A stretch of 29,513 nt of DNA from a virus (Duplodnaviria; Heunggongvirae; Uroviricota; Caudoviricetes): IMG/VR virus record IMGVR_UViG_2563366805_000003; one strand, 5' to 3'. A model generated the notes under the pieces. That model saw only the letters and a list, made by a program, of their open reading frames with translations, had not been told where the DNA came from and made no database searches. The position numbers and the translations under genes were made by a program. Positions 5,988 to 29,488 of this stretch are shown here, piece after piece. Numbering within the stretch: the first letter of the stretch is position 1; each line of letters starts with the position of its first letter.

Positions 5988-6004
5988 TTCAAACATCTCC
6001 CCAA

Positions 6005-8430: not shown

Positions 8431-8442
8431 CGGAGACTGAAA

Positions 8443-9276: not shown

Positions 9277-9448
9277 GCCAACAGGAATACCACAACCACA
9301 AAAACGCTACAAAGATGCCCACGGAGCACTCGTTACTGTCGAAAGCGTGTCTCACAACCGAGTGACGTTTTATCGCGACGGGTATCAATCGCCATGCGTA
9401 CAACCGCTGGCGCGTTTCATGAAGGAGTTCGCGGAGGTTAACCAATGA
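9269..9448 (+). CDS. hypothetical small protein
   Basis: [59 protein letters not shown]. Start overlaps the stop of the preceding gene. Confidence 0.45.
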   Translation: MSKPTGIPQPQKRYKDAHGALVTVESVSHNRVTFYRDGYQSPCVQPLARFMKEFAEVNQ

Positions 9449-10182
9449 TACCCGTCCAGAAGAAGACATTTTCACTGGCTGGTATGTCGCCAAAATCCAG
9501 CAATATGACGGCAAAGTCAGGCATTAATACAGCAGATACAAGCAAAGTTTATCATTTGCTGGTGGTCGGAACGGATGCCTTAACCATACCAGAAATCTCG
9601 GGCGATGATATTAGCATTGAGAAGGTCAGCGGCTGCGCCAGAGAATTTCTGGTCGTAGATGATGTCTTCCGCTCGTGTAGTGACTCCACAAAAACATTCG
9701 TCCACGCGCGTGACGTTAACGAAATGAGCGCGATGTACTGTGCATCTGGTGCTTCCAATAGCGAGTTTTCGGAGTCCATAAAAAAGAGCTTGCCGTTATG
9801 CGGCAACACGGTTTATGGTTATAAGGCACCTCATAAAACGGGTGCCGGGATTGGCGTCCTGAAAATTCTGAAGGCGACATATGACGCGCCGAGCGTCTTT
9901 TTTTATGTCGTAGGTCTGACTCACCCATTTTTTGGGCGTTGGTGTATAATCCAGCGCCTTTGTCAATCAATGGTGGCTCAGGCGGGGGCTTCTTCGGAAG
10001 CGCCGGTATCCTTCAGAGCCGGTTACGCCAACCCTGTCTGGGCTACCACCAGCGAAATTGGCGTTTCCGGTGGTAGCGTAACCTGCTATCTGAAGGAGGC
10101 TGCCACATGCTGGCTACTACCCCTACCCAAAAACCGCAATTTATCTGGATTATCGCCGCAGTTCGCCGCGATTGCCCGATAA
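9445..10182 (+). CDS. hypothetical protein; 3' extent uncertain
   Basis: ATGA start-stop overlap with the previous gene supports a real 5' end. The last third overlaps a promoter-like TATAAT (9946-9951) and hairpins, and overlaps the next ORF by 75 nt, so it may be non-coding leader. Confidence 0.35.
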
Positions 10183-10301
10183 TTACCGCCAAAATTCATC
10201 ATATTGCTGCCGAGTCTGAACGCGATGCTCGCCGTTCTCTGGTGCGCGATCACGTCTGCTTTTTTGCTGGTCGTATCCGCATGGAGGTGGCACATGATTA
10301 A
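10107..10301 (+). CDS. hypothetical small protein
   Basis: Strong RBS AAGGAGG 12 nt upstream; 64 aa. Confidence 0.5.
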   Translation: MLATTPTQKPQFIWIIAAVRRDCPIITAKIHHIAAESERDARRSLVRDHVCFFAGRIRMEVAHD

Positions 10302-10512
10302 AACCTACGATGTGCATATGGATCCCCTCGAACGCACAAGCCAGATCATCACACTGACAGAAGTGATTAATGACATTCTGGTGAGCAACTCTCCCTCACG
10401 AGACGAAAAACTGAAGGCGTTACTCGCGATATTGGATCTCGCCGTTCGTGACGTTCATTTCCTGCTGGAAGGTGGACAAATGCCATGCAAAACGGGGGCA
10501 ACCAATGAATAA
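10288..10512 (+). CDS. hypothetical small protein
   Basis: Internal ATG of ORF 10204-10512 preceded by GGAGGTG; overlaps the previous stop. Confidence 0.5.
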   Translation, partial: WHMIKTYDVHMDPLERTSQIITLTEVINDILVSNSPSRDEKLKALLAILDLAVRDVHFLLEGGQMPCKTGATNE

Positions 10513-10699
10513 CTCAATTAATACCCCTCGCCTTACGTCCGCACTTCAATTAATCGAGCAAGCAGCGGCTGTCCTGCTTGCTGTCAGTCTTTCGGCTGAA
10601 GAGATGGACGCTGCTGATGTCGTGGATGCGATTAAAGCGTGCTCATCTTTGGTTAACGATGCCCGTGCAGAGCTGGTAATTCTTGGGGGTGAAAAATGA
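10505..10699 (+). CDS. hypothetical small protein
   Basis: MNNSINTPRLTSALQLIEQAAAV...; start overlaps the previous gene's end. Confidence 0.45.
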   Translation: MNNSINTPRLTSALQLIEQAAAVLLAVSLSAEEMDAADVVDAIKACSSLVNDARAELVILGGEK

Positions 10700-10959
10700 A
10701 TATCAACTTAATTTATCGTCATCCGTGTGAGCTGGAAATTGAATCATTGCTGGGGCGCGAAGAGCCATATCCAGACACATTCACTCCCGCAGATTGCGCG
10801 ACTGAACGGCTTACCAGAGCGCGCACAGGTCTGGTTCATGTGATGAATGAGATTATTCCCTCGGTGGGAGGGGAACAGGCGACAGTAATCAATAGCTGGC
10901 TACAAAAAGTCACCTCCCTGATAGATATCAGTTTAATCGATGTGGAGAGTGCGAAATGA
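10696..10959 (+). CDS. hypothetical protein
   Basis: 87 aa; ATGA overlap with flanking genes. Confidence 0.5.
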   Translation: MNINLIYRHPCELEIESLLGREEPYPDTFTPADCATERLTRARTGLVHVMNEIIPSVGGEQATVINSWLQKVTSLIDISLIDVESAK

Positions 10960-11177
10960 CCAACATCCAGCTCATTGAAGCGCAATGTCGCATCGAACAG
11001 GTTCAGACTGTTTTAGGGTTCTGGCTTGAAGGGGCCAGCCCAAGCAACAGAGACAAGTTAATGATTGGCGCGGTTATGTCACTGCTCAATGGCGTACCAG
11101 AAGCTATTCAGGAAGCAGACGAATTGTTGGGCAAATATGAGTTACAGAATCATTCAGGCGAGGCGAAACATGAATAA
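10956..11177 (+). CDS. hypothetical protein
   Basis: 73 aa; ATGA overlap with flanking genes. Confidence 0.5.
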   Translation: MTNIQLIEAQCRIEQVQTVLGFWLEGASPSNRDKLMIGAVMSLLNGVPEAIQEADELLGKYELQNHSGEAKHE

Positions 11178-11772
11178 TTTCTTAACTTTCCATGCAGAAG
11201 CAACGCCTGACGGCGTAAACATCATGCACCGCAGCAACGATGGCATGACAGAACGCGTTGAGACCGTCTCATATATTGATGCCGTAAATCGTCTGGATGC
11301 CGGGGATTATGACGATAAACCAGATGAAGGTATGTCAATACATCTCGCTATAGCCGATGGCGGCAACCAGGGATATTTCGATTACACATCACAGCATAAC
11401 GTCATTATGTGGAGATGGCTGATCGCAACAGTATTCATGCTGGAAATGAGAGAGGAAAACGGCACTGTCAGCATCATTGATGATACTGGCAATCCTTCCG
11501 AAGTGGCTGTTTATTCCAACGGCATCGTTGCCATGCCGCTGTATCCAGTAGCAGAGCGCCTCGCTATGGCAAACAACATTGAGGGAGCGATGATAGAACG
11601 TTTTGGCATCGAGTCTGGCACAGAACGCTCCATCATTTTCTACAGAGCCATGATGGATGTGGAACAAGGAGCACTGACTCCATTTGGTCGTGAAACGCTT
11701 GCTGAACTTCACAACAGCTTTATAGCTGAACTGAATGAAAACGGCATGCCATCGGAACCAGTGACGCACTGA
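11170..11772 (+). CDS. hypothetical protein
   Basis: Internal ATG (MNNFLTFHAEATPDG...) preceded by GAGG; 200 aa. Confidence 0.5.
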   Translation: MNNFLTFHAEATPDGVNIMHRSNDGMTERVETVSYIDAVNRLDAGDYDDKPDEGMSIHLAIADGGNQGYFDYTSQHNVIMWRWLIATVFMLEMREENGTVSIIDDTGNPSEVAVYSNGIVAMPLYPVAERLAMANNIEGAMIERFGIESGTERSIIFYRAMMDVEQGALTPFGRETLAELHNSFIAELNENGMPSEPVTH

Positions 11773-11782
11773 GGATGGAACC

Positions 11783-12124
11783 ATGATTACTAAAAATTTC
11801 CGACTGAATGCGCTGGCAAATAAGTATGCGTCGGCACTGTATAACCACATTACCTCCACCAGCGGAGGGGACTATTTCATGGTTGATGCGGACGGCGAGG
11901 CCGTACGTGTGGAAATCGTCAATGGAGTAAAAGGCGTTCGCAGCCTGATCGATAGCTACACACTGGCAGCCATGAAAGTGTTCTACCCGCAGTGGGAAAC
12001 CGTGGGGATCGAGCTTATTGAGCGTTGCGTCACTAAGGACGGATTGACTGACGTCGGGCGTGAGATATGGCAAAGCATGGTTAATGACATGGGCGCAACT
12101 GTAGCGGGAGGTTCTCATGCGTGA
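11783..12124 (+). CDS. hypothetical protein
   Basis: 113-aa ORF preceded by GAGGATGG. Confidence 0.5.
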   Translation: MITKNFRLNALANKYASALYNHITSTSGGDYFMVDADGEAVRVEIVNGVKGVRSLIDSYTLAAMKVFYPQWETVGIELIERCVTKDGLTDVGREIWQSMVNDMGATVAGGSHA

Positions 12125-12488
12125 AAATGCAGAAATGGCGCTTAGCTCCGCAATCGGAGAGCAGGTGGCAAAGATTGCTGGTGCTGTGTGGATTCATAAC
12201 CTTCATTCTACTGGTGAAGAGAAAATGGCAATTCAGACGCCAGAGGGACGCACCATTACTACATCTCTGAAGCCGTCAGATGTTTGTGATCTGATTTGCG
12301 CATTCATGTACCCAGCAATGAGGACTGTCCACGGCGATAAGTGGAAACTTGCGACAACCGCTGAATTTGATATGTGGCTAAACAATGATGGCATGCTGAC
12401 TGATTACGGAATAACCAAGTGGCAGATGCTGGTTAGCCATATCGCAAACGCTATAGACCACGTGGGGTACGGTGATGCGAAACATTGA
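12117..12488 (+). CDS. hypothetical protein
   Basis: 123-aa ORF overlapping the previous and next genes. Confidence 0.5.
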   Translation: MRENAEMALSSAIGEQVAKIAGAVWIHNLHSTGEEKMAIQTPEGRTITTSLKPSDVCDLICAFMYPAMRTVHGDKWKLATTAEFDMWLNNDGMLTDYGITKWQMLVSHIANAIDHVGYGDAKH

Positions 12489-15231
12489 TCTTATCCGTCA
12501 GGTTATCAGTGCGTCTGAAAACAACTGGCCTCATGTGCTGGGCTGCCTGAACATAAATGTCCCTGACTCTCCGCGCCGTCATGCTCCCTGCCCTGCATGT
12601 GGGGGCAAAGATCGATTCCGGTTCGATGACAACGGGCGCGGTAGCTTCATCTGTAATCAGTGCGGCGCTGGTGATGGGCTGGATTTAATTAAACGCGTAA
12701 ATAACTGCGACACAACAGAGGCGGCGCTTCTTGCCGCTGATGTTCTGGGTATTGATTACCGGACAACGGAAACACCAGAAGCCACCAGCCAGAAACGGGA
12801 ACAACTGGAAACCGAGCGCCAGCGACGCGAACAGGAGCGCCTGAAAAGGGCAGAGAAGGACGAACAACAAAGACGGGATACGTTTTCCCGTCAGTTTGAT
12901 GACATGCGCAGAAAGGCTGTAAACGGCAAATCTGATTATCTGGTTGCGAAAGGGGTAGGTGATTTTACATTCCCCGTGTTGCCCGATGGATCTCTGTTGC
13001 TGGCGCTGGTGGATAAATCCGGCGCAGTAACAGCAGCACAGACTATTACCTCACATGGTGAAAAAAGACTCCTGACAGGTTCAGCAAAGCGAGGGGCATA
13101 TCACGCCATAAACGCACCAGAAACAACACAGAGCATCTTAATCGCAGAAGGGCTGGCAACGGCATTATCTGCCCATTTAATGCGTCCAGAGGCGCTGACA
13201 GTGGCGGCGATTGATGCCGGGAACCTGTTATATGTCGCCCAGGTACTGCGGGATAAATTTCCTTCAGCACAAATCATCATTGCTGCGGATAACGACCACA
13301 GCGAAGGAAGACAAAACACGGGGAGAATAGCAGCAGAAAAAGCAGCTTTATCTGTTTCTGGATGGGTGGCATTACCCCCGACAGATCACAAAGCAGACTG
13401 GAATGATTACCACCAAAAACACGGCATTAAATGCGCCACAGAAGCGTTCAATAAGTCAATGTACCAACCACAGGGTAATGGCGTGAAACAGGAGCCACAG
13501 ACCATTGAGGGAAGCGATTTTAAGGTTATGGATACCGATCCACTGAAACCAAGAATAGAAAGCCGCGAGGATGGTATTTATTGGGTATCTCCGAGAGCTG
13601 ACAGCCAGAGTGGAGAAATCATCAATAACGAAAGCTGGTTATGTTCTCCGTTAAGCGTTATCGGTACTGGCAGAGACGATAAAGACCAGTATCTCATTCT
13701 TCGCTGGCTGTCGTTTGGTTCTGAAACGCCGACAACCGCTGCCATTCCACTGGCTGATATTGGTGAACGTGAAGGATGGCGCACACTTAAAGCTGGTGGG
13801 GTAAATGTCACGACCAAAAGCAGCCTCAGAGCAATACTGGCAGACTGGCTACAACGCAGTGGCTCTCGTGAATTGTGGCGTGTTGCTCATGCCACTGGCT
13901 GGCAATGCGGAGCGTACATCATGCCTGATGGGGAAATCATCGGAACACCTGAAAATCCTGTGCTGTTCAGCGGGAGAAGCTCAGCCGCAGCCGGATATAC
14001 CGTCTCAGGGAGCGCGAAAAGCTGGCGTGATAACGTGGCGCGTCTGGCCTTTGGTAACTATTCAATGATGACCGGGATCGGCGCAGCACTGGCAGCGCCA
14101 TTGATTGGGCTGGTGGGCGCTGACGGGTTCGGCATTCATTTCTATGAGCAGTCGAGCGCAGGTAAGACCACCACGGCAAACGTGGCGAGCAGCTTATACG
14201 GCAACCCTGATTTACTGCGGCTGACGTGGTACGGAACCGCGCTGGGGCTGGCAAATGAGGCCGCCGCCCACAATGACGGACTAATGCCGCTTGATGAAGT
14301 TGGTCAGGGCGCTGATCCTGTCAGCGTTTCACAGTCTGCCTATGCGTTATTTAACGGTGTAGGGAAACTGCAAGGCGCTAAAGATGGTGGAAACCGGGAT
14401 CTAAAACGCTGGCGTACAGTGGCAATCAGCACCGGAGAAATGGATTTAGAAACATTTATCGCTACTTCCGGGCGAAAAACCAAAGCCGGGCAACTGGTGC
14501 GACTGCTGAATATTCCGTTGAGTAAAGCAGTACGCTTTCACGATTACCAGAACGGAAAACAGCACGCAGACGCACTGAAAGACGCTTACCAGCATCACCA
14601 CGGCGCGTCCGGGCGTGAGTGGATTAAATGGCTGGCAGACCACCAGCAACAGGCTATTAAAACCGTTCGTGATTGCGAAAGCAGATGGAGAAGCCTGATC
14701 CCATCCGATTATGGTGAGCAGGTTCACCGTGTAGCCGCGCGATTTGCCATTCTGGAGGCCGCATTGTTGTTAGGCGAGGTTGTAACAGGCTGGGATGCTC
14801 AGACATGCCGTGATGCGATACAGCACAGCTATAACGCATGGTTGCGCGAGTTCGGCACAGGTAACAAAGAGCATCAGCAGATTATTGAACAAACGGAGGC
14901 ATTTCTTAATGCCTATGGGCTTAGCCGTTTTGCACCATTTCCATACAGCCCGGCAGATTTGCCCATCAAAGATTTAGCCGGATACCGTCAGCGTGGAGAA
15001 CATGACGAAAGCCCAATGATTTTCTACACATTCCCGGCCACATTTGAAAAGGAGATCGCATGTGGTTTCAACGCAAAACAGTTTGCTGAAGTGTTGAAAA
15101 AAGCCGGGATGCTAACCCCACCAAACAGCGGTCGTGGATACCAAAGAAAATCACCACGTATTCAGGGACGACAAATAAACGTTTATGTACTCAATTACCA
15201 GCCAGGAGATTATAACTCATCTGAAGAATGA
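12472..15231 (+). CDS. primase-helicase (phage P4 alpha-like): zinc-binding primase N-terminus plus P-loop NTPase/helicase C-terminus
   Basis: 919 aa. Zinc finger CPACGGKDRFRFDD...FICNQCGAGDGLDLI is typical of P4 alpha / PICI Pri-Rep primases. Walker A-like GIHFYEQSSAGKTT further on. Iterons follow the stop immediately. Confidence 0.85.
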   Translation: MMRNIDLIRQVISASENNWPHVLGCLNINVPDSPRRHAPCPACGGKDRFRFDDNGRGSFICNQCGAGDGLDLIKRVNNCDTTEAALLAADVLGIDYRTTETPEATSQKREQLETERQRREQERLKRAEKDEQQRRDTFSRQFDDMRRKAVNGKSDYLVAKGVGDFTFPVLPDGSLLLALVDKSGAVTAAQTITSHGEKRLLTGSAKRGAYHAINAPETTQSILIAEGLATALSAHLMRPEALTVAAIDAGNLLYVAQVLRDKFPSAQIIIAADNDHSEGRQNTGRIAAEKAALSVSGWVALPPTDHKADWNDYHQKHGIKCATEAFNKSMYQPQGNGVKQEPQTIEGSDFKVMDTDPLKPRIESREDGIYWVSPRADSQSGEIINNESWLCSPLSVIGTGRDDKDQYLILRWLSFGSETPTTAAIPLADIGEREGWRTLKAGGVNVTTKSSLRAILADWLQRSGSRELWRVAHATGWQCGAYIMPDGEIIGTPENPVLFSGRSSAAAGYTVSGSAKSWRDNVARLAFGNYSMMTGIGAALAAPLIGLVGADGFGIHFYEQSSAGKTTTANVASSLYGNPDLLRLTWYGTALGLANEAAAHNDGLMPLDEVGQGADPVSVSQSAYALFNGVGKLQGAKDGGNRDLKRWRTVAISTGEMDLETFIATSGRKTKAGQLVRLLNIPLSKAVRFHDYQNGKQHADALKDAYQHHHGASGREWIKWLADHQQQAIKTVRDCESRWRSLIPSDYGEQVHRVAARFAILEAALLLGEVVTGWDAQTCRDAIQHSYNAWLREFGTGNKEHQQIIEQTEAFLNAYGLSRFAPFPYSPADLPIKDLAGYRQRGEHDESPMIFYTFPATFEKEIACGFNAKQFAEVLKKAGMLTPPNSGRGYQRKSPRIQGRQINVYVLNYQPGDYNSSEE

Positions 15232-15256
15232 GCTTCTTCATGTGCGTAGAAAAGGT

Positions 15257-15367
15257 GTTGGTTCAGTTGGTTCAGTTGGTTCAATTTGTAAAGAGTATTG
15301 TTTTATAAGGATTTTATTCTTTTTATTGAACCAACACTGAACCAACAACACGGTATTTTGAACCAAC
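15257..15367. repeat. iteron cluster (putative replication origin): 3 tandem GTTGGTTCA (10-bp period), AT-rich spacer, 3 inverted TGAACCAAC
   Basis: GTTGGTTCA at 15257, 15267 and 15277. TGAACCAAC at 15327, 15338 and 15359. Spacer is ATTTGTAAAGAGTATTGTTTTATAAGGATTTTATTCTTTTTAT. Starts 26 bp after the primase stop. Confidence 0.7.
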
Positions 15368-15815
15368 ACAATGTGACTGAATTGATGCGCACAACACCTG
15401 GCTGGCATCAGAGAGTGTTTTACGAGACTTTCGTAAAATCCTGTGTACAAGGGCGTGACGTTTTTGAAAGTGAGCACTACGAAATTTTCGTAGTTCAAAA
15501 AACAGCCTCTGAGAAGTTGTTATGCCTGTTCAGCAAACCATCCGCATAGCTGATCGCGAATCAAATTACCAATGGAGCCAGAAGCAAGGGCAGAACTGAA
15601 AAGCGCCTGCCGTGAAGAGTAATGCGACACCATAAATATAGTTTTTAGAGTCCATAAAAAACCTGTCAAAACCTGACACACAGAACGATGCCACCAGCTA
15701 CTGAGCGGTGGCATTTTTTTGTGCTATTTGTTTCATATTTTGCAATTATGATGATGAATATTGCGATTTGTGAAACTATAATAACTGTTGTTTTATACAG
15801 TTCTAAGGGGGCGTT

Positions 15816-15977
15816 ATGGCTATTTCAGTAAAGCCGGTATTGATAAGTGAGAAGCAAATGGAAGCGATAAAGAAAATTCAGGAAGAGCAGCGTAAAAAAT
15901 CAGGAATTGGAGTAGCGCCAACTCTGCATGAAATTGCACGAGGGTTAATAGATAAGGCGCTGGCAGGCTGTATGTGA
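15816..15977 (+). CDS. hypothetical small protein (53 aa), not in the supplied ORF track
   Basis: ATG at 15816 preceded by AAGGGGGCG. Translation MAISVKPVLISEKQMEAIKKIQEEQRKKSGIGVAPTLHEIARGLIDKALAGCM. Stop at 15975-15977, 16 nt before the next gene. Confidence 0.4.
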   Translation: MAISVKPVLISEKQMEAIKKIQEEQRKKSGIGVAPTLHEIARGLIDKALAGCM

Positions 15978-15993
15978 AAATGGATGGCATCGC

Positions 15994-16455
15994 ATGGAAC
16001 TAAAATTTATTGATAACCCTGTGCGATTACAGGCCTTTCTTAACGAGCCAGGCAATACCGAAAATATTGTTGAGCCGGGGCACACGTACTACATCAAGCC
16101 TGATGCGGTATATCTCGGCATCTACGAAGGATTAGTGCTGGCTGGCGTTCATGAAGTGCGTAACTTCTGGCATAGCGTTGTTGAATGCCATGCGGTGTAC
16201 GACCCCGGATTCCGTGGTGAATATGCACTGCAAGGACATCGATTATTCTGCAAATGGCTTCTCGAAAACTCACCATTCCTTAACAGCATCACTATGGTTC
16301 CTGACACCACGAAATACGGACGGGCAATTATCCGTTTGCTTGGCGCTACCCGTGTTGGTCACCTTGATGATGCTTATATCAGATGTGGTAAACCCGTCGG
16401 CGTAACGCTTTATCAGTTAACTCGGCAACAATATAAGGAATTCAGCGAATGTTAA
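15994..16455 (+). CDS. hypothetical phage-like protein; first gene of the putative ejection-protein cassette
   Basis: 153-aa ORF overlapping the start of the next gene. Confidence 0.5.
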   Translation: MELKFIDNPVRLQAFLNEPGNTENIVEPGHTYYIKPDAVYLGIYEGLVLAGVHEVRNFWHSVVECHAVYDPGFRGEYALQGHRLFCKWLLENSPFLNSITMVPDTTKYGRAIIRLLGATRVGHLDDAYIRCGKPVGVTLYQLTRQQYKEFSEC

Positions 16456-17126
16456 TTACCCATATAGCTCATAAACATCTCAATCGTGCCGTATACGAAA
16501 AAGGCGGTGATGGTGGTGCCTCTAAAGCTCAGGCGAAGGCCCAGCAGCAGGCAATTGATTTGCAGCGCGAGCAGTGGAATACTGTGATGAATAATCTCAA
16601 GCCGTATGCAGAAGTCGGATTGCCTGCTTTACAACAACTGCAAGGACTGATGACTCTGGAAGGGCAGAATAAAGCCGCGAATGATTTCTTTGGTTCTGGT
16701 TTATATAAAACACAGGCAGATCAGGCCCGTTATCAGAACCTTGTCTCAGCAGAAGCTACCGGGGGGCTTGGCTCAACAGCTACCAGTAACCAGTTATCTT
16801 CCATTGCGCCCATGCTTTATAACAATTGGCTTAGTGGGCAAATGCAAAATTATGGAAACCTGCTAAATGTCGGGATGAATGCGGCATCAGGGCAGGCAAC
16901 AGCAGGGCAAAACTACGCCAATAATACCGGGCAACTCTTGCAGGGGCTTGGCGCTATTCGTGCAGGTCAGGCGCAGCAGCCATCCAGTCTTGCGCGTGGT
17001 ATTGGTGGGGCGGCATCAGGCGCTTTAGCGGGTGCGCAACTTGGTTCCGTTGTTCCGGGTATAGGTAATGTCGCCGGGGCTATTGGTGGTGGGCTTATTG
17101 GTCTTGTTGGGGGGCTTGGATTCTAA
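16449..17126 (+). CDS. putative DNA-ejection / internal virion protein, small (gp7-like by size and position), Gly-rich hydrophobic C-terminus
   Basis: 225 aa. C-terminus GAASGALAGAQLGSVVPGIGNVAGAIGGGLIGLVGGLGF is a glycine-zipper-like segment. Stop overlaps the next ATG. Confidence 0.45.
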   Translation: MLITHIAHKHLNRAVYEKGGDGGASKAQAKAQQQAIDLQREQWNTVMNNLKPYAEVGLPALQQLQGLMTLEGQNKAANDFFGSGLYKTQADQARYQNLVSAEATGGLGSTATSNQLSSIAPMLYNNWLSGQMQNYGNLLNVGMNAASGQATAGQNYANNTGQLLQGLGAIRAGQAQQPSSLARGIGGAASGALAGAQLGSVVPGIGNVAGAIGGGLIGLVGGLGF

Positions 17127-18445
17127 TGGCGACATGGCAACTTGGCGGGCTGCCTAGCATGGCACCGCAAAATGATAATGCTCCTCGTTCTTCCGTTCCT
17201 CAGCCTGTGCAGTATCAGCAGCAGCCAAACGTAGGTTTAATGGCGCTACAGGGGCTAAGAGGCGTTGCTGAGATTAATCAGCAGGCGCAAATTTCCCAGC
17301 AGCTAAAAGAATATCAGGCACGGTTGGGTAGTGCGGTAGCTAATAATGATCGTGTTGGCGTGCAGAAGTTAATGGCCCAGTATCCCCAGTTTATGGCTGA
17401 TTCTCAAAAACAGATGGGATTCATTGATGCTGAGCAAAATCGGCAGACCGCTGACGCTGCCATGAATCTGCGTCTTGCGTCACAAACTGGAGATCCACTG
17501 ACCATGCAGAAGGCCATTCAGCAGGCAAATCCAGTATTACAGCGATTTGGTCTTCCTGCTGAAGAGGTTTATCAGTCTTGGCAGAATGACCCACAGGAAT
17601 TCAACAGAATCACTGACCTCATCCACCTCCATGCTGATCCAAATAGTTACTTTAGTGTTCAAGAGAAGCAGCAAGGGCAGAGTATTGCACAGCAGAACGC
17701 AGATACATCTGCATATAATGCTCAGGTTAATGCGGAGCAGGGTAATCGGCGTCTCGATATGGAGCAGTTCAAAGTCATATCCGATAACCAACTACGCACG
17801 AGAGAAATGGTTCTGAAAGCACGACTTGGACGTGCTCAAAATGACATCGAGAGAGACAAGCTCAATGCTGAACTGAGCAAGGTACAGCAGGCGAAAGTGG
17901 AGAAGATGAACGATAAAATTAATACTGTTGCAGGTAATATCGACTCCTTGAACTCTGCGCTTGAAGTGGGTCATGAACTGGCGGGAATTGTAGGGAAACA
18001 TCCTTCGGCCGTTACCCGTTCGCAGAACTATAACCCCCTGACGCTGGGGTTTGGATTCCTCCCTGATGTAGCAGAAGACACACGAAGCCTACGCGCCAAA
18101 GCTGATGAATACAACCTAAAGGTTATTCTGCCTAGCCTAAAAGGTACTTTTGGCTCTAACCCAACCGAAGGGGAAAGGGCTGCCCTTATGCAATCTCAAA
18201 ATGGCATTAAGTCAGCAACCAGCAATGAGGCATTTTTGCGAGAGTTGAATAAAGCGCAGGACGTAATTATTCGAATGCAGAAACGACAGATTGCCGGGCT
18301 CGGTATTCCTGTAACCAAATCTAAGGACGAAGAAACTGATACCAAAATGCTGTTGCAGGATCCTTCACTGGTTAAGGATTATGTGACCGCACATGGCTAT
18401 CTGCCGGAAAGTTACTATCAGGCAAAACTTAAGGGATGGCAATGA
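17126..18445 (+). CDS. putative DNA-ejection / internal virion protein, middle (gp20-like by size), Gln-rich
   Basis: 439 aa, Q-rich with coiled-coil-like stretches. Translationally coupled on both sides. Confidence 0.45.
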   Translation: MATWQLGGLPSMAPQNDNAPRSSVPQPVQYQQQPNVGLMALQGLRGVAEINQQAQISQQLKEYQARLGSAVANNDRVGVQKLMAQYPQFMADSQKQMGFIDAEQNRQTADAAMNLRLASQTGDPLTMQKAIQQANPVLQRFGLPAEEVYQSWQNDPQEFNRITDLIHLHADPNSYFSVQEKQQGQSIAQQNADTSAYNAQVNAEQGNRRLDMEQFKVISDNQLRTREMVLKARLGRAQNDIERDKLNAELSKVQQAKVEKMNDKINTVAGNIDSLNSALEVGHELAGIVGKHPSAVTRSQNYNPLTLGFGFLPDVAEDTRSLRAKADEYNLKVILPSLKGTFGSNPTEGERAALMQSQNGIKSATSNEAFLRELNKAQDVIIRMQKRQIAGLGIPVTKSKDEETDTKMLLQDPSLVKDYVTAHGYLPESYYQAKLKGWQ

Positions 18446-21162
18446 TGGCACAACTGACAGAAAAACAGAAAGCCTATTCCCGTCATCTCGATGAAAAATA
18501 TGGTTTCCCATCAGGGACGATGGAAACATTAGTTGGCAATGAATCTAGTGGTAACGGAAGTGCCGAGTCACCGAAAGGAGCTAGAGGATTTGCTCAACTG
18601 ATGCCCTCAGTAATGAGTGATGCTGGTTATCGTGGAACAGATCCGCGCTCACTGCCATTTGAAAAGCAAATGGATATCGCAGCAAACCATCTCAATAAAG
18701 GAATGAAGCGATTTGGTGATATAGGTATGGCATTGGCTGGGTATAATTCTGGCTATGCTCGTATTAATGCCGTAAGAAACGGTAAATCTACACTGCCAGA
18801 TGAAACGGCTAATTACGTAAGTAAATTTGCAGATGCCGGAATAATCCCTGATGACAGTGAAATCTTGCAGTTTGCACAAACCAGTCAACATCGCAATCTT
18901 CAGCAGCCTGACTACTCAGAGCTTGATAAAGAAATCTCTCAGGTGGGAGATATTTCTGCATGGGAAGCAAAACGTCAGCAATTTAAGAACATAGAAGCAG
19001 GACTACCAACAGCCAGTTCATGGGAGCAGAAAAGAGCTCAGTTTCTCGCCGATGAAAATGCCGGGGAACCGCAGCAGCAAGTAGCCAAGTCTAACCTTAA
19101 TCCTGAGATGGAATATCTTTCGCCAGGACTGAAAGCTGCGCCAGAGCAGATGGCCAGAGGGATTGCTAATATACCGTTTGATGTAATGGACGCAGGCGTG
19201 GGGGTAGTCAATGCGGCGCAATCAGCCGGAGCATGGGCAGCTCAGAAGCTTGGTGTGGGTGATGGCACATACACGCCCATATCACCTGTCTTTCGCCCAG
19301 TAGACCAACCTACAGATCCATACGCGCAGGCTGGTGAGCAGCTAGCACCTTACCTTATTACAGGATTAGGTGCAGGAAAGGCAGCTACCGCAGCTTCTTC
19401 AGTTGCCAACGCTCCACGTGCTGAACGTGCGGCCACAAAGGTGGCTAGTATGTTGGCAGAAAACCTGCCAGGTACATTGGTGAACGCCCAAAAGAACGGG
19501 CAGATCAGCCCAGAAGACCTAGCAAAAGAGACAGGTATTGGCCTAGCAGGATCGCTAGGAGCACGCGCTTTAATAAAGAGCGGACAGACAGCCAGTGACG
19601 TAATGCGAGATGTATTGCGGAGTAATACAAATCAATCAGGCCATGTGTTAGGGGCAGCAAATACTCTGGAAACCGCCAATGATGTATCGAAAGCAGCGCG
19701 TTCTGCCGTAGGCCGAGAGCATATCGCATCGCAGGCATCAAACGTCAGAGATGATGTCGCTAAGGCGGCGAAAATCACTGGTATTAATATCAACACCCTG
19801 ACGCCTGGAATGCGCTCAGGTAGTCGTGGAATTGCCCAAGCAGAAGGTGTTCTGGCATCAACTCCTGGGAATGTTCAGGATGCTCACCTTACGGCCTTCA
19901 ATGAAATATCCTCAAAGTTGAATAAGCAGTTGTCTGATTTCGGTGCTGAGTCTGGAAGCGCATCAGAAAAAAGCGCAGCAATTAAAGAGCGCATCATCGC
20001 GAGCCTCAGTGATATGAAAACAGCAGAGAATATGGCATGGGCAGAACTGCGAAGCACGATGCCACGCGAAAGGATGAAAATGAGTAATGGGATGGCTGTC
20101 GTCCAAGCAGAAAAAGCAGCCAATGTTCCACTCAGCCCGGAGATGAAACAGTTTCAGGCTGCCAACAACCAAGGTGGCGGCATAACCTTCGACGGGATGA
20201 AGGCATGGCGTGCTAAGTTTGCTGATGCTGAACAAGCAAACACCCGGGCAGGTAAGGCCAATGCCGCCCGGATTGCCGGAGAAATGCGCAGAGCTATCAC
20301 TGATGACATGCGCATCATGGCTGAAAAAGGAAACTTCCTCACAGAATGGCAGAAAGCTAACGATCTCTCTAAAAGTTACATTATCGCCAAACAAAATGCC
20401 GAATCTGTTTTTGGTCGAGATCTCGCATCAGACGCTATGGTAAGAAAAGGTGCCGATACGCTTAAGGCATCCGCAAACACTGGAACTGGAGCTTTTCACC
20501 GTCTTATCTCCGCGCTGCCGGAAGCAGAACGCCAACCAGCAATAGCATCTATTCTTCAGCATGCTGTGGCGCAGGGAGAGAAGGGAGGAATCGGTGAAGA
20601 GTCTGGTATCCAGTATTTTGCCAAGCTCATGACCCAGCAGAATGTAAACGCCATCAGTCGTCATGCGCCAGATCTCGGTAGAATGATGAAAGAGTTCGGT
20701 GTACTCGCTAAAGCCAGCACCAGACCGCAGCGATACGTAGAGCGCACGGGAAGAACAACTGAGGCTCTCAAAACGCTCGATTCAGGCCTTCCAAAGATCG
20801 TCGGCGTGATTATGAACGGAGTTCAACAGTCAGGTGCGATCGCTGGAGGCTTTGGCGGTGGTGTAATTGGTTCGATTAGTGGTTTGGTTGCTGGTGGCGC
20901 GCTGAGAAATACTGTGGCTAAGATTGGGGCGACAAGAAGTGGTAGGTATGCGATAGAGAAAGCCGTTCAGGAAGCTACAAAAGCAGTGCGCGCAGGGGCA
21001 TCACCAGCAGCGATCGCCGCAGCAGAGAAACGATTTTCGGCCAATAAAATTGCCATGAAAGCAATTCGTGATGCCGTTGGGGCTGAAGAATTCGTGAAAC
21101 TGACAAGGGCCGGGATTGTAGCTACCCTCAGTGGCATGAAAGATGTTAGCGAATGGGAATAG
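18436..21162 (+). CDS. large virion-associated protein with N-terminal lytic transglycosylase (SLT) domain
   Basis: 908 aa. SLT signature GNESSGNGSAESPKGARGFAQLMPSV ... LAGYNSGYARINAV (ES / GLMQ-like / YN-G motifs). Long alpha-rich C-terminus with a Gly-rich segment GAIAGGFGGGVIGSISGLVAGGAL. Confidence 0.7.
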   Translation: MAMMAQLTEKQKAYSRHLDEKYGFPSGTMETLVGNESSGNGSAESPKGARGFAQLMPSVMSDAGYRGTDPRSLPFEKQMDIAANHLNKGMKRFGDIGMALAGYNSGYARINAVRNGKSTLPDETANYVSKFADAGIIPDDSEILQFAQTSQHRNLQQPDYSELDKEISQVGDISAWEAKRQQFKNIEAGLPTASSWEQKRAQFLADENAGEPQQQVAKSNLNPEMEYLSPGLKAAPEQMARGIANIPFDVMDAGVGVVNAAQSAGAWAAQKLGVGDGTYTPISPVFRPVDQPTDPYAQAGEQLAPYLITGLGAGKAATAASSVANAPRAERAATKVASMLAENLPGTLVNAQKNGQISPEDLAKETGIGLAGSLGARALIKSGQTASDVMRDVLRSNTNQSGHVLGAANTLETANDVSKAARSAVGREHIASQASNVRDDVAKAAKITGININTLTPGMRSGSRGIAQAEGVLASTPGNVQDAHLTAFNEISSKLNKQLSDFGAESGSASEKSAAIKERIIASLSDMKTAENMAWAELRSTMPRERMKMSNGMAVVQAEKAANVPLSPEMKQFQAANNQGGGITFDGMKAWRAKFADAEQANTRAGKANAARIAGEMRRAITDDMRIMAEKGNFLTEWQKANDLSKSYIIAKQNAESVFGRDLASDAMVRKGADTLKASANTGTGAFHRLISALPEAERQPAIASILQHAVAQGEKGGIGEESGIQYFAKLMTQQNVNAISRHAPDLGRMMKEFGVLAKASTRPQRYVERTGRTTEALKTLDSGLPKIVGVIMNGVQQSGAIAGGFGGGVIGSISGLVAGGALRNTVAKIGATRSGRYAIEKAVQEATKAVRAGASPAAIAAAEKRFSANKIAMKAIRDAVGAEEFVKLTRAGIVATLSGMKDVSEWE

Positions 21163-21312
21163 ACGCTCTAACTAACAAAACCATAATAGCCAAGGACGGC
21201 ATACTGATATTGAGCCAACTATCAAAATTCCATATCACATTACGGGCCTGTGGCTTACATTCGCTTACAGTGATGATAATTTATAACCACGCAATTCTTA
21301 GGTGAGATTATC

Positions 21313-22011
21313 ATGATTAAAAATCTTCTTTTAATATTATCCCTGTCATTATTGGCTGGATGCGTACAAAAACCGTTAGTAACGGTCAATGCTTTATCTT
21401 CCGGGCAATCTGTCGGTAAGAAGTTCTTGATCATCCCCGCAAGCCAAGAACTTTGGAACACCAAACAGATTGAATACACTCAAATAGCTACGGTAGTAGC
21501 CGCCAGTTTATCAAGCCAAGGATATACACAAGTTAAAGATGAAAAATTGGCTGACCAGGTAATTCTCTTGAACTTTTTGAGAAGCGGGGCCATTTCAAAT
21601 ACTCGTAATGTAACCATCCCAATATACGGGCAAACTGGTGTGAGCTCAGCAACAACGTACGGAAACTCGAACACCACGTTCAATAGTTATGGTGGTGGCT
21701 ACGGTACAGCTAATACCACTGGAACGGCAACAACAGTTTATACGCCTACTTATGGAATTACTGGCGCGTATAACACAACTGTGACGGACACGTTCTACGG
21801 CGCAGGGGTGATACTCCAGTCGTTTGATGCCAAGGCTTATCTCAATAATAGGCAGATTAATATGTTATGGAAAGTTGGTAGCTCAGTCGTCTCGCAACAG
21901 TCTGATGGAATTGCTGATTACAAGGGGTTGGCGAGAATAGCCGCTAGCTATGCCGGGAAAAATACAGAAGGTGATATAACTTTTAATGTTGACCCTAAAG
22001 CACCAAATTAA
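21313..22011 (+). CDS. lipoprotein (signal peptide plus lipobox LLAGC), Thr/Gly/Tyr/Asn-rich; possible surface exclusion lipoprotein
   Basis: MIKNLLLILSLSLLAGCVQ fits a signal peptidase II lipobox. Low-complexity T/G/Y/N-rich middle. AT-rich gene with its own terminator. Confidence 0.65.
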   Translation: MIKNLLLILSLSLLAGCVQKPLVTVNALSSGQSVGKKFLIIPASQELWNTKQIEYTQIATVVAASLSSQGYTQVKDEKLADQVILLNFLRSGAISNTRNVTIPIYGQTGVSSATTYGNSNTTFNSYGGGYGTANTTGTATTVYTPTYGITGAYNTTVTDTFYGAGVILQSFDAKAYLNNRQINMLWKVGSSVVSQQSDGIADYKGLARIAASYAGKNTEGDITFNVDPKAPN

Positions 22012-22040: not shown

Positions 22041-22871
22041 GCCCCTATTATTCATGAATCGCTTTTTCTAGAAGGTATGCGACAAACGTTAAGTGACATT
22101 GCCTACACATTCGGGGCGGGATTTCAAATCCGCTCCCAGTTGATGGGGGGCGTTACAGTACGCGCATATCCGCTTTATGTGAAACAGGAAGATTTTTCTG
22201 ATATCACTGCCACAGCAAAACACCAATTTCGTGACCAGTACGCGCGCGAGGGGTATCAGTTGCAAAAAATTTTGCAACTACGTCCGACCAGTACGCACAC
22301 GATGGCGGGGGATACCATGAAACTGTTCTCTACACGAGACAGAGTGGTGGTGATGTGTTGATTATCGGCGTATATGCGCACAGGACGCGCTATGACAATG
22401 TTTTATGCGGGTACACCAATCACATGTATCTGGTGTGATAAATCGCGTTACATGACCTCTCATGTTGTGCTGGTGGTTATCACGACGTTCTGAATCTGGC
22501 TTTTGTCTGATATTTTGCGACAAGTACGCGCGCGTAACATCGAAATTATCGGATGGCGTATGTTGCTGGCAAGATAAAGTCGGCGTAATACAAAGGCGTT
22601 ACTTGATAGCAGCAAGATTACAACAATGGTTGTTGAATTTGAGCGATGTAAGGAATTGATTTAGGGAGGCGCTGATGGCTAAAAAGTTCCACTACCAGCG
22701 GATGAATGCGCCAGCGATGGCCGTTTGGTAGTAAAAGAGGAGCCATTCCTCAATCAGTTGAATACATTATGCCAACTAAATGGGTGGGGGCACTGTGTGG
22801 GTATTCAGCGGTGACGGTATTTTTTAAGCCAAGGACTATCCGTAGCAGGGGGACTCATTTTGAAATATTTA

Positions 22872-23309
22872 TCATATGTAACTTATTATTTTAGATAAAG
22901 ATTTCCAGTTAAAGAAAAAAGTTATCATTGATATAATCAAATATGCCCCTGCGAGTAGCAGGGCATAATAATCCAGAGGCAGATTGCTGACAACAGGGGC
23001 AAACATCGAGATCATTGCTAATAGGCAGGCTGTGATCAGCGTAGTTCCTGTATCAAAAAGCCCCTCAATAATGCCTTTTAGTACTCCGTTACTTTTTAGA
23101 GCGCCTACAATTCCCTTTGAACTATCAAAGCTACTTAGCATGGTGACTGATGCCAAAACAAAACCAAAGAGAACTCCAGAAATAGTTGAAAGAGCACCAG
23201 CAGCCGAAATGACAGCATTGTGATCTAGGTCGTGTAAAAAATGGGCACCAGCAATAGCCATAGCTAGAGCAAACAATGACTTGGCAGCAAACAATTTCCG
23301 AGAACTCAT
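22872..23309 (-). CDS. small integral membrane protein, about four predicted TM helices; second gene of a two-gene operon
   Basis: 145 aa with four hydrophobic stretches: FALAMAIAGAHFL, ISAAGALSTISGVLFGFVLASVTML, TTLITACLLAMISMFAPVV, YYALLLAGAYLIISMITFFF. RBS AGGAAT; 12-nt gap after the upstream gene. Confidence 0.65.
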   Translation of the reverse strand: MSSRKLFAAKSLFALAMAIAGAHFLHDLDHNAVISAAGALSTISGVLFGFVLASVTMLSSFDSSKGIVGALKSNGVLKGIIEGLFDTGTTLITACLLAMISMFAPVVSNLPLDYYALLLAGAYLIISMITFFFNWKSLSKIISYI

Positions 23310-23321
23310 AATGTATTCCTG

Positions 23322-24407
23322 TTACGTTTGACTAACCAAATAGTACTGGGTTAGATACCTAAGGTTGTCATTCTTTGCTTGTAGCATAGCATTTTTAACG
23401 TCAGTATCGGTCGGATACCCATCTGCTTGGATAGGCACCATCTTCTTTACCGTAAGAACTTCGTCTACAAGACTTTTCTTCTTTTTATCGCCCTGAGCAA
23501 CAACATTTGCTTTCTCAAAAGTTAAACGACCATCACCACCAGGGAACTTTTCTAGCATCTCCTTAAGGCTTTTTTTAACGTCATCCTCAAGCCATCCCTT
23601 TGCTTTTCTTTTTAATGGAGAATGTCCGCGTAACGAAATAGTCAGGTGGCTTGAACTGGTGCCTCTGATCATCTCAATCATCTGATTCGCGAACATTCCA
23701 TCGAGTTGATACTGTGCGGCATTGAAGTTTCTTGGGATGGCCACAGAAATCTCGCAGCTTCTTAGATTGGATCCAGTTTCGAGTAGTTCTTTGATGCTTT
23801 CTTCTTTCCAAATGGCTTCAAAAGAAACAGGGACTCCGCGATCACTGGAGTTGAAAAGAAGGAAGGCTAAGTCACTATGGCGTGGACCTAAATGATTTAA
23901 AGACAATACTAGAATGTCTGTCTGAGGATAATAAATAAAGTATGTACGTTCTGAAAGAGTCTTTGCCCCGGCTAGAGGGATTTTCTCTTCCACCCACTCT
24001 TTATCTGTAATATATGCCAGTGTTGCGCTTTTTCTTCTTCGAGACATGAATCCGAAGTAGGAGCCATCCTCGGGTGAGATGTCTAGAAAATGAATTTTAA
24101 GTTCTCTTTCACCAAAGTCTGCATAGTGGGTCATCTTGAAGTCTTTAGAACACCGATCATACAGATTTTTAAAGGCCTCTGCGGTTAACCCCTTGTTACT
24201 AGTGCGAATATTCTCAGAGCTTGTGTAAAAGCCCACCCTTACAGATTTCAAACTTTGATCTTTTGGTGCCACAGTCATTTGAGCTCCATTGTACTCTGCG
24301 ATAGTTTTTGCACACCTTGAAATCAAAATCTCCATGTCAGTCACGAGAAAATAACTATGGATGAAACCCATCAAAGGCATTGAATACAGGTGGCTTTTGA
24401 GAATCAT
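23322..24407 (-). CDS. hypothetical cytoplasmic protein, no recognisable motif; first gene of the two-gene operon
   Basis: 361-aa ORF on the minus strand, no signal peptide or TM segment. AT-rich relative to the flanks. A long upstream non-coding region includes the second iteron cluster. Confidence 0.6.
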   Translation of the reverse strand: MILKSHLYSMPLMGFIHSYFLVTDMEILISRCAKTIAEYNGAQMTVAPKDQSLKSVRVGFYTSSENIRTSNKGLTAEAFKNLYDRCSKDFKMTHYADFGERELKIHFLDISPEDGSYFGFMSRRRKSATLAYITDKEWVEEKIPLAGAKTLSERTYFIYYPQTDILVLSLNHLGPRHSDLAFLLFNSSDRGVPVSFEAIWKEESIKELLETGSNLRSCEISVAIPRNFNAAQYQLDGMFANQMIEMIRGTSSSHLTISLRGHSPLKRKAKGWLEDDVKKSLKEMLEKFPGGDGRLTFEKANVVAQGDKKKKSLVDEVLTVKKMVPIQADGYPTDTDVKNAMLQAKNDNLRYLTQYYLVSQT

Positions 24408-24748
24408 CCTAACCTGGTGACGGTGGTTCGCATATCCTGATGGATGATCAGTGATTAATCAATGCGCCAAGCAGATGTGTCTATGTGTTTGTTAATCATT
24501 GCATGACAGTAGATCGACATGGGAGATCACGTTATATAGTTGAATTGTTAGGATATCCATGCACCGATCAACTGACTAGGCTGATGTGCTTTTTAGCAGG
24601 TGCCATATAGTAGTTAGGCGGTTCTGTGAAATGATTACTGTTCCAGCATAACTGCGGCATAAAGCGGTGCTATATAAGCTATTTGCTGGCGGATTTAGTC
24701 TTCACCGTTAATATATGTAGTGACTATTTGACAGAGTGTTAGTTCACG

Positions 24749-24848
24749 GACACTTTTTGTTGGTTCAAAATGAGTTGATGTTGGTTCAATATTTTAGAAA
24801 AAACACAATAAAAACAACGCTCTTTACAAATTGAACCAACTGAACCAA
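24749..24848. repeat. second iteron cluster, inverted relative to 15257-15367: 2 GTTGGTTCA, AT-rich spacer, 3 tandem TGAACCAAC
   Basis: GTTGGTTCA at 24749 and 24770. TGAACCAAC at 24822, 24831 and 24840. The reverse complement of 24808-24862 is near-identical to 15246-15300. Confidence 0.7.
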
Positions 24849-24894
24849 CTGAACCAACACCTTTTTGCTTATCTATATAATCTGAGAGGCAGAA

Positions 24895-25176
24895 ATGATA
24901 AGGGACAGGAAAGCTGAAGAGCTGGAGTCAAAAGGGCTATACCGGAGAGCTGCCGCACGATGGATGGAAGTCATGCTGTTATGCACCGAGGACGATGATC
25001 GGGAATGGATAAAGCGCCGCCGTGAAACGTGTCTGGAGAACGTGAAGCGCCCGCCCGTGAAGGTTGAGGAATTTGGCGACCTGCATAAAGCTGTTACCGA
25101 AACGCAACACCGCATGGGGATAGCGCAACCGAACGGTAACGCCTTCCGGTTAAATGGCGGCAAGAGGCAAAGGTAG
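24895..25176 (+). CDS. PerC-family transcriptional activator-like protein
   Basis: 93 aa. MIRDRKAEELESKGLYRRAAARWMEVM matches the recalled PerC/Pch N-terminal signature (AEELE..G.YRRAA.RW). Confidence 0.55.
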   Translation: MIRDRKAEELESKGLYRRAAARWMEVMLLCTEDDDREWIKRRRETCLENVKRPPVKVEEFGDLHKAVTETQHRMGIAQPNGNAFRLNGGKRQR

Positions 25177-25779: not shown

Positions 25780-26322
25780 ATGTACCAGCTAAAGATAACC
25801 ATCCGAGACAGCAAACCACCTATATGGCGGCGTGTGCTGGTTCCAGAGCAAATCCCCTTTAGTAAACTTCATGCCGTGATCCAGTTAGCTTTTGGCTGGA
25901 ATGACGAACACCTGTATATGTTCGAGAAAGGGCGTAAAGGTGATCCAGGTAGCGAGTATCGCGTATGGGGTGAGGATGAAAGCATGGGTAACGCGGCAAT
26001 CACGCCACTATGGGCGGCGCTCCAGAATGAGGGTGACAAGCTGGTTTACACGTATGACTTTGGCGACTGGTGGGATTGCGTCATTGTGCTGGAGAAGCAA
26101 ACACACGATACGAGTAATCAGCCCATTAGCTGCCTGCGTGGGAAAGGCACCACCCCGGCGGAAAACTCAGGCGGCTTGCATGGTTACAATGAATTGCTAT
26201 TACAGGCCAGAGAGTCTGATAATCCTGAGCAGGCCGAGATCCACAATTTCCTGATGCTGGATATTGAACGCCGGGTTTACGACCTGAGCCGCATCAACGA
26301 CAGATTGCAGGCTATTAACTGA
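25780..26322 (+). CDS. pRiA4b ORF-3-like family protein
   Basis: 180 aa. MYQLKITIRDSKPPIWRRVLVPEQIPFSKLHAVIQLAFGWNDEHLYMF...YTYDFGDWWDCVI fits the recalled PRiA4_ORF3 pattern (YxLK..PPIWRR, FGW, DFGDWW). Confidence 0.6.
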   Translation: MYQLKITIRDSKPPIWRRVLVPEQIPFSKLHAVIQLAFGWNDEHLYMFEKGRKGDPGSEYRVWGEDESMGNAAITPLWAALQNEGDKLVYTYDFGDWWDCVIVLEKQTHDTSNQPISCLRGKGTTPAENSGGLHGYNELLLQARESDNPEQAEIHNFLMLDIERRVYDLSRINDRLQAIN

Positions 26323-28692: not shown

Positions 28693-29151
28693 TCAGTCGA
28701 TAATACGCAGAATGGCGTGAGCCTCTGGATGTTGCATGGCATACTCCCGCAGGCGGTAATAGTGTGCGGTCATCGCGTCACATTCTGTACGGCAGGCATG
28801 GTGGCTATACGCAATCAGGCAGACAGCAATACCTGCTGCTTCTGCACTCATTTGGGCATCGTTACCGTTCAGGCAGTTAAACAGACGCCATGTCTCATCG
28901 TTGTCAGGCTCGGGGGACATAAATGCGCCGCCATTGCTGAGGGTGTAGAACGACCAGATACCACCGCTGTAGCCCTCACAGAAGCGGTCCATCCAGGCGA
29001 AGATATGCGGCTCCAGGAGTAGCCACTGCGGGATAGCGCCAAAGTACTGTGGCCAGAAATCGATACGCTGTTCATCGGGTACCTGCGTGACGGTCAGTTC
29101 AAATTCGGGTTGGTTAGCGGGTGCGAGATCGTGCTGCGTCTGTGTTGTCAT
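28693..29151 (-). CDS. yafX: antirestriction protein (KlcA/ArdB-like; YafX/YfjX family)
   Basis: MTTQTQHDLAPANQPEFELTVTQVPDEQRIDFWPQYFG...FYTLSNGGAFMSPEP...LREYAMQHPEA. Start at the internal Met of ORF 28693-29364. Confidence 0.8.
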   Translation of the reverse strand: MTTQTQHDLAPANQPEFELTVTQVPDEQRIDFWPQYFGAIPQWLLLEPHIFAWMDRFCEGYSGGIWSFYTLSNGGAFMSPEPDNDETWRLFNCLNGNDAQMSAEAAGIAVCLIAYSHHACRTECDAMTAHYYRLREYAMQHPEAHAILRIID

Positions 29152-29248
29152 GGGTATGTCTCCGTCAATAAAAACGCCAGCGGCGATGGCTGGCGTATGG
29201 GGATATAAAGTGTGTTCGGGGAGGTGAATGCGGGTAAATGCTTCGCGA

Positions 29249-29488
29249 TCAGCGGGTGGCCGTGTCTGTACGGATGCCTGAGGTGCGGATATAGCGGTTA
29301 AGACCTTCACCGGCATCCGGCTCAAAGTTCCATGCCCGCCAGACCATCCGGCCTTCAGTATCACGAACCACCAGACGGAAGTGACTGCCCTGGTCGTCTT
29401 CGAGTGTGATATTGCTGTACGTGGTAGTGACCGCTTGCGCTTGTCTCCGGGTGAAAGGCCCCGGTGGCAGCAACACGGATTGGGTCAT
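29249..29488 (-). CDS. ykfF: DUF905-family protein (YkfF-like)
   Basis: 79-aa [79 protein letters not shown]. Confidence 0.75.

Follow-up and report, generated by a model that had tools for sequence, protein, structure and literature searches.

Which function is served by two adjacent, co-directional genes on the minus strand of IMG/VR virus record IMGVR_UViG_2563366805_000003, a 29,513-nucleotide (nt) stretch of DNA that is referred to here as the window? The original prediction, made from the sequence alone, described a gene for a large cytoplasmic protein followed after 12 nt by one for a small membrane protein, and proposed an undescribed exclusion or abortive-infection module with the architecture of lambda RexAB. 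The two open reading frames (ORFs) are present as described (22872-23309 and 23322-24407), and the pair is richer in A+T than its flanks, with a G+C content of 40.9%, whereas the whole window has 47.1% and positions 6000-22000 of the surrounding island have 48.1%. Both ORFs are real genes and not chance occurrences, since each has dozens of homologues and a PHROG of its own. The pair is probably a Rex-type two-component exclusion (abortive-infection) module and a remote homologue of lambda rexA-rexB. The RexA fold of the modeled large protein, and the size, topology and gene order by which the small protein resembles RexB, support this reading, and a phage phenotype is predicted by analogy with the known systems.

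One element of the original prediction had to be corrected before the proteins could be compared with others. The maximal ORF of the large gene (23322-24407) spans 361 amino acids (aa), but the protein is almost certainly 318 aa long and starts at ATG 24278, which corresponds to Met44 of the ORF. Several observations lead to this assignment: a GGAG Shine-Dalgarno sequence precedes the ATG, the annotation of E. coli ABU 83972 by the Prokaryotic Genome Annotation Pipeline (PGAP) likewise gives a length of 318 aa, all homologues of the large protein are 309-323 aa long with an alignment that begins at Met44 (homologues at 91% identity begin at its equivalent), the alignment of phrog_7651 begins at residue 46, and the 43-codon extension is open only where the large protein of a locus is identical to that of the window. 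Judged from these comparisons, the extension is most likely an untranslated leader and not coding. The small gene has an AGGA motif 7 nt ahead of its ATG which, together with the 12-nt spacer, implies that both genes are translated from one mRNA. The region upstream of the large gene (24279-24463) presumably holds the promoter and the leader. A scan for terminator-like hairpins returned a number of sites that was not above shuffled expectation.

The large protein has no match in Pfam, DUF6731 (PF20505) included. PF20505 is carried by homologues of the large protein at 41-49% identity, and was matched by 52 of the 59 distant relatives collected with a large-protein profile, and by this transitive homology the large protein can be placed as a divergent member of DUF6731. 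The family comprises 254 clusters at 50% identity, all of them single-domain proteins of ∼285-320 aa, and there is no literature on it. A motif of the form NHLGP...D is conserved in the large protein. None of the family scans related the large protein to a metabolic or structural family; such a relationship would, according to the original prediction, have spoken against an exclusion module. Weak matches to TubZ_C and DUF2649, which appeared when both proteins were scanned against Pfam, NCBIfam and PADLOC, were rejected as noise. As a separate observation, four distant DUF6731 members in our deep alignment (A3) weakly match the PADLOC candidate PDC-M67A (best E 7e-4), and this unvalidated candidate may overlap with DUF6731.

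Fold comparison, one of the checks proposed with the original prediction, links the large protein to lambda RexA. The AlphaFold2 (AF2) model of the large protein has a predicted local distance difference test (pLDDT) score of 81.5, and when the PDB was searched with this model by Foldseek, 8TWQ, the structure of lambda RexA, was the top match (probability 1.0, E 5.1e-7), followed by RdgC and CENP-N. The same list of neighbors has been published for RexA itself by Adams et al. (PMC11077077). RexA was the top solved-structure match of the large protein by two methods, and the Foldseek alignment has ∼14% identity. The model runs from seven strands through four strands with helices to a set of C-terminal helices, an order that fits the split globular and dimerization domains of RexA. 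As modeled, the large protein thus has the two-domain RexA fold, with a 7-stranded split globular domain and a 4-strand/helix dimerization domain. RdgC and CENP-L/N (IML3/CHL4) are far weaker matches than RexA, lack a membrane partner, and are housekeeping proteins, not mobile cargo.

Profile comparisons, which do not depend on structure, point in the same direction. A deep DUF6731 profile aligned by hhalign to a RexA profile of 31 sequences gave E 3.6e-5 to 3.3e-4 over 221-261 colinear columns, compared to E 0.08-0.31 for reversed controls. In addition, a RexA hidden Markov model (HMM) matched 7 of 194 DUF6731 proteins at E ≤0.01, always through RexA residues 85-149, with no match in the reversed control. 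The signal was seen only with the deep profile (A3): a shallow profile (A2) matched the RexA family weakly (E 0.05), neither the large-family profile against the single RexA sequence nor the small-family profile against the single RexB sequence was significant, and the large-family profile searched against sequences of solved structures gave only an insignificant match to IF3. For the RexA/RexB set, the phage collection provided four diverged pairs, and pattern scans of viral and genome contigs returned close relatives only. By these profile scores the large family is detectably homologous to RexA, albeit remotely and below the level of family membership.

The small protein was predicted to consist of 145 aa with four hydrophobic helices, and both hydropathy and structure prediction agree with this description. 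Hydrophobic segments are located at ∼6-24, 34-58, 87-107 and 114-134, and the AF2 model places helices at 3-24, 30-61, 76-103 and 112-144. The family hydropathy profiles of the small protein and RexB are correlated (r = 0.74), with segments at 9-21, 39-57, 86-103 and 117-131 in the former and at 10-20, 49-63, 85-107 and 118-134 in the latter, and K/R residues are found at the N-terminus, in the central loop and at the C-terminus of both. As far as can be predicted from sequence, the small protein has the length and topology of RexB (∼144 aa, four helices and a basic central loop). The best-conserved part of the small family is the second transmembrane helix (TM2), with H30, S41, T42, G45, L47, F48, G49, F50, L52 and A53, which can be written as H30 followed by STxxGxLFGFxLA. 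Rich in small and polar residues, TM2 is of the type expected to line a pore.

A relationship between the small protein and RexB is also indicated by profile comparison, directly and through an intermediate. Aligned by hhalign, the small family and RexB scored E 0.023, which improved to E 0.0022 with a more diverse profile (controls 0.13-0.42) and stayed below significance; under relaxed settings the alignment extends from end to end. The intermediate is a 148-aa protein (L113p) from locus L113, where it is paired with P0100, a distant DUF6731 protein. It matched Pfam RexB with E 0.0035 over 123 of 139 positions at 18.3 bits, under the cut-off of 27 bits, and the RexB HMM built here with E 4e-6. 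L113p also matched the small family of the window, with E 1.9e-5 by HMM and E 1.9e-4 by hhalign. Together, these data suggest that the small protein is homologous to RexB. The original prediction had regarded the likeness to RexAB as purely architectural. Its interpretation is supported, and the homology to RexA at the profile level and the sub-threshold link to RexB go beyond architecture and point to common descent.

Co-conservation of the two genes, which the original prediction had put forward for examination, is complete in our collection. Each of the 91 loci has the partner next to the large gene and in the same order, and the spacer between the genes ranges from -1 to 28 nt; the presence of the partner was settled with tblastn, and in one locus (L007) the partner had been overlooked by the gene caller. 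Pairwise identities of the partners are strongly correlated (r = 0.91 for 42 unique intact pairs) without discordant or swapped pairs, and because the partners co-diverge in this way the two genes appear to evolve as a unit. Adjacency and co-divergence alike are consistent with an obligate partnership. Homologues of the large protein (31-91% identity) are spread across Enterobacterales, and a gene of 145-153 aa lies directly downstream of the large gene in every neighborhood examined. Even two members with ∼20% identity to the large protein of the window each have an overlapping downstream membrane gene, and the TM2 motif is also found in the partner of one of them.

The genomic settings of the pair are diverse. 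In lambdoid prophages of E. coli and Serratia, it occupies the interval from the Q antiterminator to the lysis cassette and is oriented against these genes, whereas a Rahnella prophage has it at the prophage end beside dinI. Another locus has it beside an integrase, and it was also found on a metagenome contig (31% identity) and on IMG/VR contigs. Nucleotide homology between the window and a Klebsiella-type locus (L016) covers window positions 22876-24463, and a 58-nt patch (24400-24457) is also kept in locus L020. Because homology between contexts ends at 22876 and 24463, the portable unit is ∼1.6 kb (22872-24463). This unit takes in ∼185 nt upstream and no shared terminator. The exact allele of the window is chromosomal wherever it occurs, namely in 42 of 5426 complete E. 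coli genomes (≥80% of the query in 41 of them), and nucleotide searches of the phage and plasmid collections found no copy of it. The pair is accessory (moron) cargo of prophages and of the island at thrW in which it lies in the window. In the Serratia prophage locus (L009), a gene with an Acb2/Tad1 hairpin domain, an anti-defense sponge family, is located at 3152-3490 by the lysis cassette, ∼3.5 kb from the pair; this prophage therefore holds both a putative defense and a counter-defense.

How does the pair compare with characterized systems? Lambda RexAB (PF15969/PF15968; PDB 8TWQ) has the same gene order, with a spacer of 15 nt compared to 12 nt, a RexA of 279 aa compared to 318 aa, and a RexB of 144 aa compared to 145 aa. 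The general Rex-like layout, in which a RexA-like cytoplasmic gene is followed by a gene for a protein with four transmembrane (TM) helices in one operon, is found in the window, and so is the placement as cargo on a temperate phage or integrated element. The order of a cytoplasmic and a 4-TM gene is shared with Sbash gp30/gp31, CarolAnn gp44/gp43 and Butters gp30/gp31, which are prophage-expressed systems that exclude heterotypic phages. The large proteins of these three are longer (337-372 aa), and the roles of the partners are reversed in Butters (PMC12894663). Sbash gp31 has 165 aa, the same length as the Sbash protein that ranked second when the model of the small protein was searched against BFVD (probability 0.93, E 0.12, not significant).

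Including RexABpp, five Rex-like systems have been described (PMC12894663). RexABpp (PP_5643/PP_5644) differs from the window pair in that it belongs to another genus, on prophage P1 of Pseudomonas putida, and in that it is located two genes downstream of a CI-like repressor. Both genes are needed for defense (Rosendahl et al. 2026, PMC12894663), and overexpression of its RexA leads to RexB-dependent membrane damage (PMC12894663). A 22-mer derived from PP_5643/PP_5644 primers had no match in viral or metagenome contigs, and the terminal peptides did not occur in the protein set used here. Sbash gp30/gp31 matched no Pfam or PADLOC model, and hhalign comparisons of these two proteins with the lambda RexA/RexB and window families gave E 0.1-0.9, the same as controls (E 0.9 and 0.37 for the lambda families). 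On the basis of the hhalign scores, the window pair is nearer to lambda RexAB than is Sbash, an accepted Rex-like system. On the best reading, the pair would be a further Rex-like lineage beside the five described systems. It is a new lineage within a known kind of defense, not a new kind of system. The word "undescribed" in the original prediction is thus apt for DUF6731, a family without literature, but not for the kind of system, which is known and of which RexABpp, a RexAB-type pair of similar remoteness, was validated in 2026 (PMC12894663).

If the pair operates like lambda RexAB, RexABpp and Sbash, the large protein would dimerize and bind DNA non-specifically, and is predicted to be the sensor. 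Its trigger would be a phage protein or a DNA-protein intermediate that arises during infection, and once triggered, it would activate the small protein. The latter is by the same analogy predicted to be the membrane effector, a channel or pore, and may form an oligomer lined by the conserved TM2. Membrane potential and ATP would then collapse, growth would stop and the infection would abort, with protection of sister cells and of the resident element as the presumed benefit.

Several results weigh against a Rex-type module. Most directly, neither window protein matched the Rex models, Pfam RexA/RexB and PADLOC Rex, even at E 1, and the 59 distant relatives had no match to Pfam or PADLOC RexA at E ≤1. 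In calibration, the Pfam and PADLOC RexA models recognized lambda RexA at E 1e-97 and 9e-110, and the Rex models of both collections found lambda RexA and RexB at E ≤1e-60. The global TM-score to RexA is low (0.35-0.39 in Foldseek), which may stem from a hinge-related orientation of the two domains, and the hhalign probability for the large family and RexA reaches only 38-71%. The evidence for the small protein is affected in a similar way. Its direct similarity to RexB has an hhalign probability of 13%, its AF2 model is of low confidence (pLDDT 63), and a BFVD fold search with this model gave no significant match and left lambda RexB outside the top 50. The scores by which L113p bridges the two families are weak, at ∼18 bits, and were obtained in very small search spaces; moreover, the proteins compared are membrane proteins, in which a shared composition readily produces matches. 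A sigma-70 consensus scan of the upstream region found no convincing promoter in 24279-24463. In six loci on IMG/VR prophage contigs (L053, L055, L057 and L068-L070), the large gene is shortened to 109 or 237 aa and the small gene is intact and of full length, which could mean that the sensor gene is decaying, that another start is used, or that a RexB-like function is kept alone. Finally, canonical rexAB is always located directly downstream of cI, whereas the window family is never beside cI and is therefore not under PRM-type control; it occupies moron slots and a site near one end of the thrW island instead. A location away from the repressor is not disqualifying, since Sbash genes 30/31 adjoin tail and lysis genes.

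Other assignments of roles were weighed against this background. The roles of the two proteins may be reversed: the membrane protein would be a sensor, an anchor or an antidote, and the effector would be the RexA-fold DNA binder, which would clamp incoming or replicating phage DNA and block replication. DNA binding by RexA-fold proteins is non-specific, and RdgC encircles DNA as a ring (PMC11077077); in Butters, the RexA-like protein is an effector that the membrane protein sequesters (PMC12894663). Kiwa likewise combines a 4-TM protein with a dimeric ∼315-aa DNA binder that stalls phage replication, and the computed evidence is compatible with either partner of the window pair as the effector. 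We nevertheless regard a reversal as unlikely. A related scheme, in which the pair would be a membrane-tethered DNA trap, is also unlikely, if anything a little more so. Here the small protein would report phage DNA entry or localize to its site, and the incoming genome would be held by the RexA-fold dimer and kept from replicating. If true, Rex parts would follow a Kiwa- or Butters-like logic, and the island may target competitor or helper phages. Kiwa itself (KwaA/KwaB) resembles the window pair in architecture, as a two-gene defense made of a four-helix membrane protein and a dimeric, non-specific DNA binder of ∼315 aa. Its gene order is opposite, KwaB has a Rossmann-like and DUF4868 fold, and KwaA contains a cytoplasmic beta-barrel. 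With a different fold, no PADLOC match and no KwaB among the PDB fold matches, Kiwa was ruled out as the family of the pair, and is an analogue of it, not a relative.

A function outside of defense would leave the pair as a modulator of a lysis-lysogeny or induction switch, which is the second activity of lambda RexA, or as an RdgC-like modulator of recombination, in which the membrane protein serves as regulator or localizer. Such a function is quite improbable in our assessment, even though the large protein shares its fold with the recombination modulator RdgC, orphan RexA homologues occur outside prophages (Adams et al., PMC11077077), and lambda RexA biases a bistable switch independently of RexB (PMC11077077). 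Prophage morons are frequent carriers of entry blockers, and the small inner-membrane protein is encoded on prophages and on an island with P22-type ejection proteins. The pair could therefore act in superinfection exclusion at the membrane, blocking DNA entry in the manner of Sie/Imm without abortive infection, with the large protein in an assisting role. However, known entry blockers need no cytoplasmic RexA-fold partner, scans of Pfam, PHROGs and PADLOC showed no similarity to Sie/Imm, and the homology signal points specifically to Rex, so that an entry block is very unlikely.

Read as a Rex-type module, the pair provides a testable function for the uncharacterized family DUF6731 and for its constant, unnamed membrane partner, and it would extend the short list of Rex-like systems by one lineage. 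Current defense finders overlook Rex-type modules, since the Rex models of PADLOC and Pfam miss both the DUF6731 family and the validated Sbash pair. The E. coli lambdoid prophages with the pair in the slot between Q and lysis open the 70-year-old question of Rex sensing and channel opening to comparative genetics in the most highly developed system of host and phage, and the large-protein motif NHLGP...D and, in TM2 of the small protein, H30/STxxGxLFGFxLA are targets for mutagenesis.

Table 1. Coordinates of the gene pair and of other features in the window.
Feature	Position	Strand	Remarks
rexA-like gene	23322..24278	-	318 aa, stop codon counted in the coordinates; cytoplasmic, DUF6731 family
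rexB-like gene	22872..23309	-	145 aa, stop codon counted in the coordinates; predicted four-helix inner-membrane protein
Intergenic spacer, 12 nt	23310..23321	-	AGGA at 23317-23320 is the ribosome-binding site of the small gene
Shine-Dalgarno GGAG of large gene	24284..24287	-	5-nt spacer, then ATG 24278; read from the sequence
43-codon 5' extension of maximal ORF	24279..24407	-	Not covered by homologues
Upstream region moving with the module	24279..24463	-	Nucleotide homology to other loci
Weak terminator-like hairpin	22737..22751	-	Consensus scan; ∼120 nt downstream of small gene, outside the conserved module
Resolvase	158-748		Element left of attachment-site copy
PD-T4-3	809-1522	-	Single-gene defense system, 237-aa GIY-YIG protein; full-length PADLOC match, E 1.4e-127
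IS3-type transposase	1894-2760		Element left of attachment-site copy
488-aa ORF	4082-5548	+	Lowest G+C stretch of the window (31-35%); no Pfam match; weak PADLOC match to LmuA/WYL, E ∼0.004
Attachment-site copy	5942-5987		Only the 3' end of tRNA-Thr is present; no tRNA found in the window by ARAGORN
Primase, DUF2824, P22 injectosome translocase-like protein, 908-aa SLT-domain ejection protein	12472-21162		
Lipoprotein-like gene	21313-22011		N-terminus ...LSLLAGC
Repeats GTTGGTTCA/TGAACCAAC	24758-24858		Five copies; three in tandem at 9-nt spacing, two inverted
PRiA4_ORF3-family protein	25780-26322	+	E 1e-42; right of perC
Antirestriction-domain protein	28693-29364	-	PF03230, E 4e-39; right of perC

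The window is part of the E. coli chromosome at thrW (tRNA-Thr), a hotspot of integration. It contains a copy of the attachment site (att) at 5942-5987, which indicates that two elements were inserted in tandem at thrW; there is no second att copy within the window. To the right of this copy follow an integrase, a Toprim/DUF927 primase, DUF2824, P22-type injectosome proteins, the lipoprotein-like gene, the pair and perC. The setting that had been described for the pair, with a lipoprotein-like gene and a P22-type ejection cassette upstream and repeats on its other side, was thus recovered. Strain ABU 83972 has a corresponding island in whose annotation no capsid or terminase genes were seen, and the island looks like a satellite-like element with ejection proteins only. 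In the same strain, perC is the last annotated gene ahead of the integrase fragment of the next island. The GTTGGTTCA repeats lie between the pair and perC (24895-25176), at a distance of 40-130 nt ahead of perC, and could be regulator sites or iterons. They are unlikely to be a regulator site of the pair, being 480-580 nt upstream of its start, by perC and outside the conserved module. The element to the left of the att copy carries the known defense gene PD-T4-3 beside the resolvase. The 488-aa ORF could be another defense gene.

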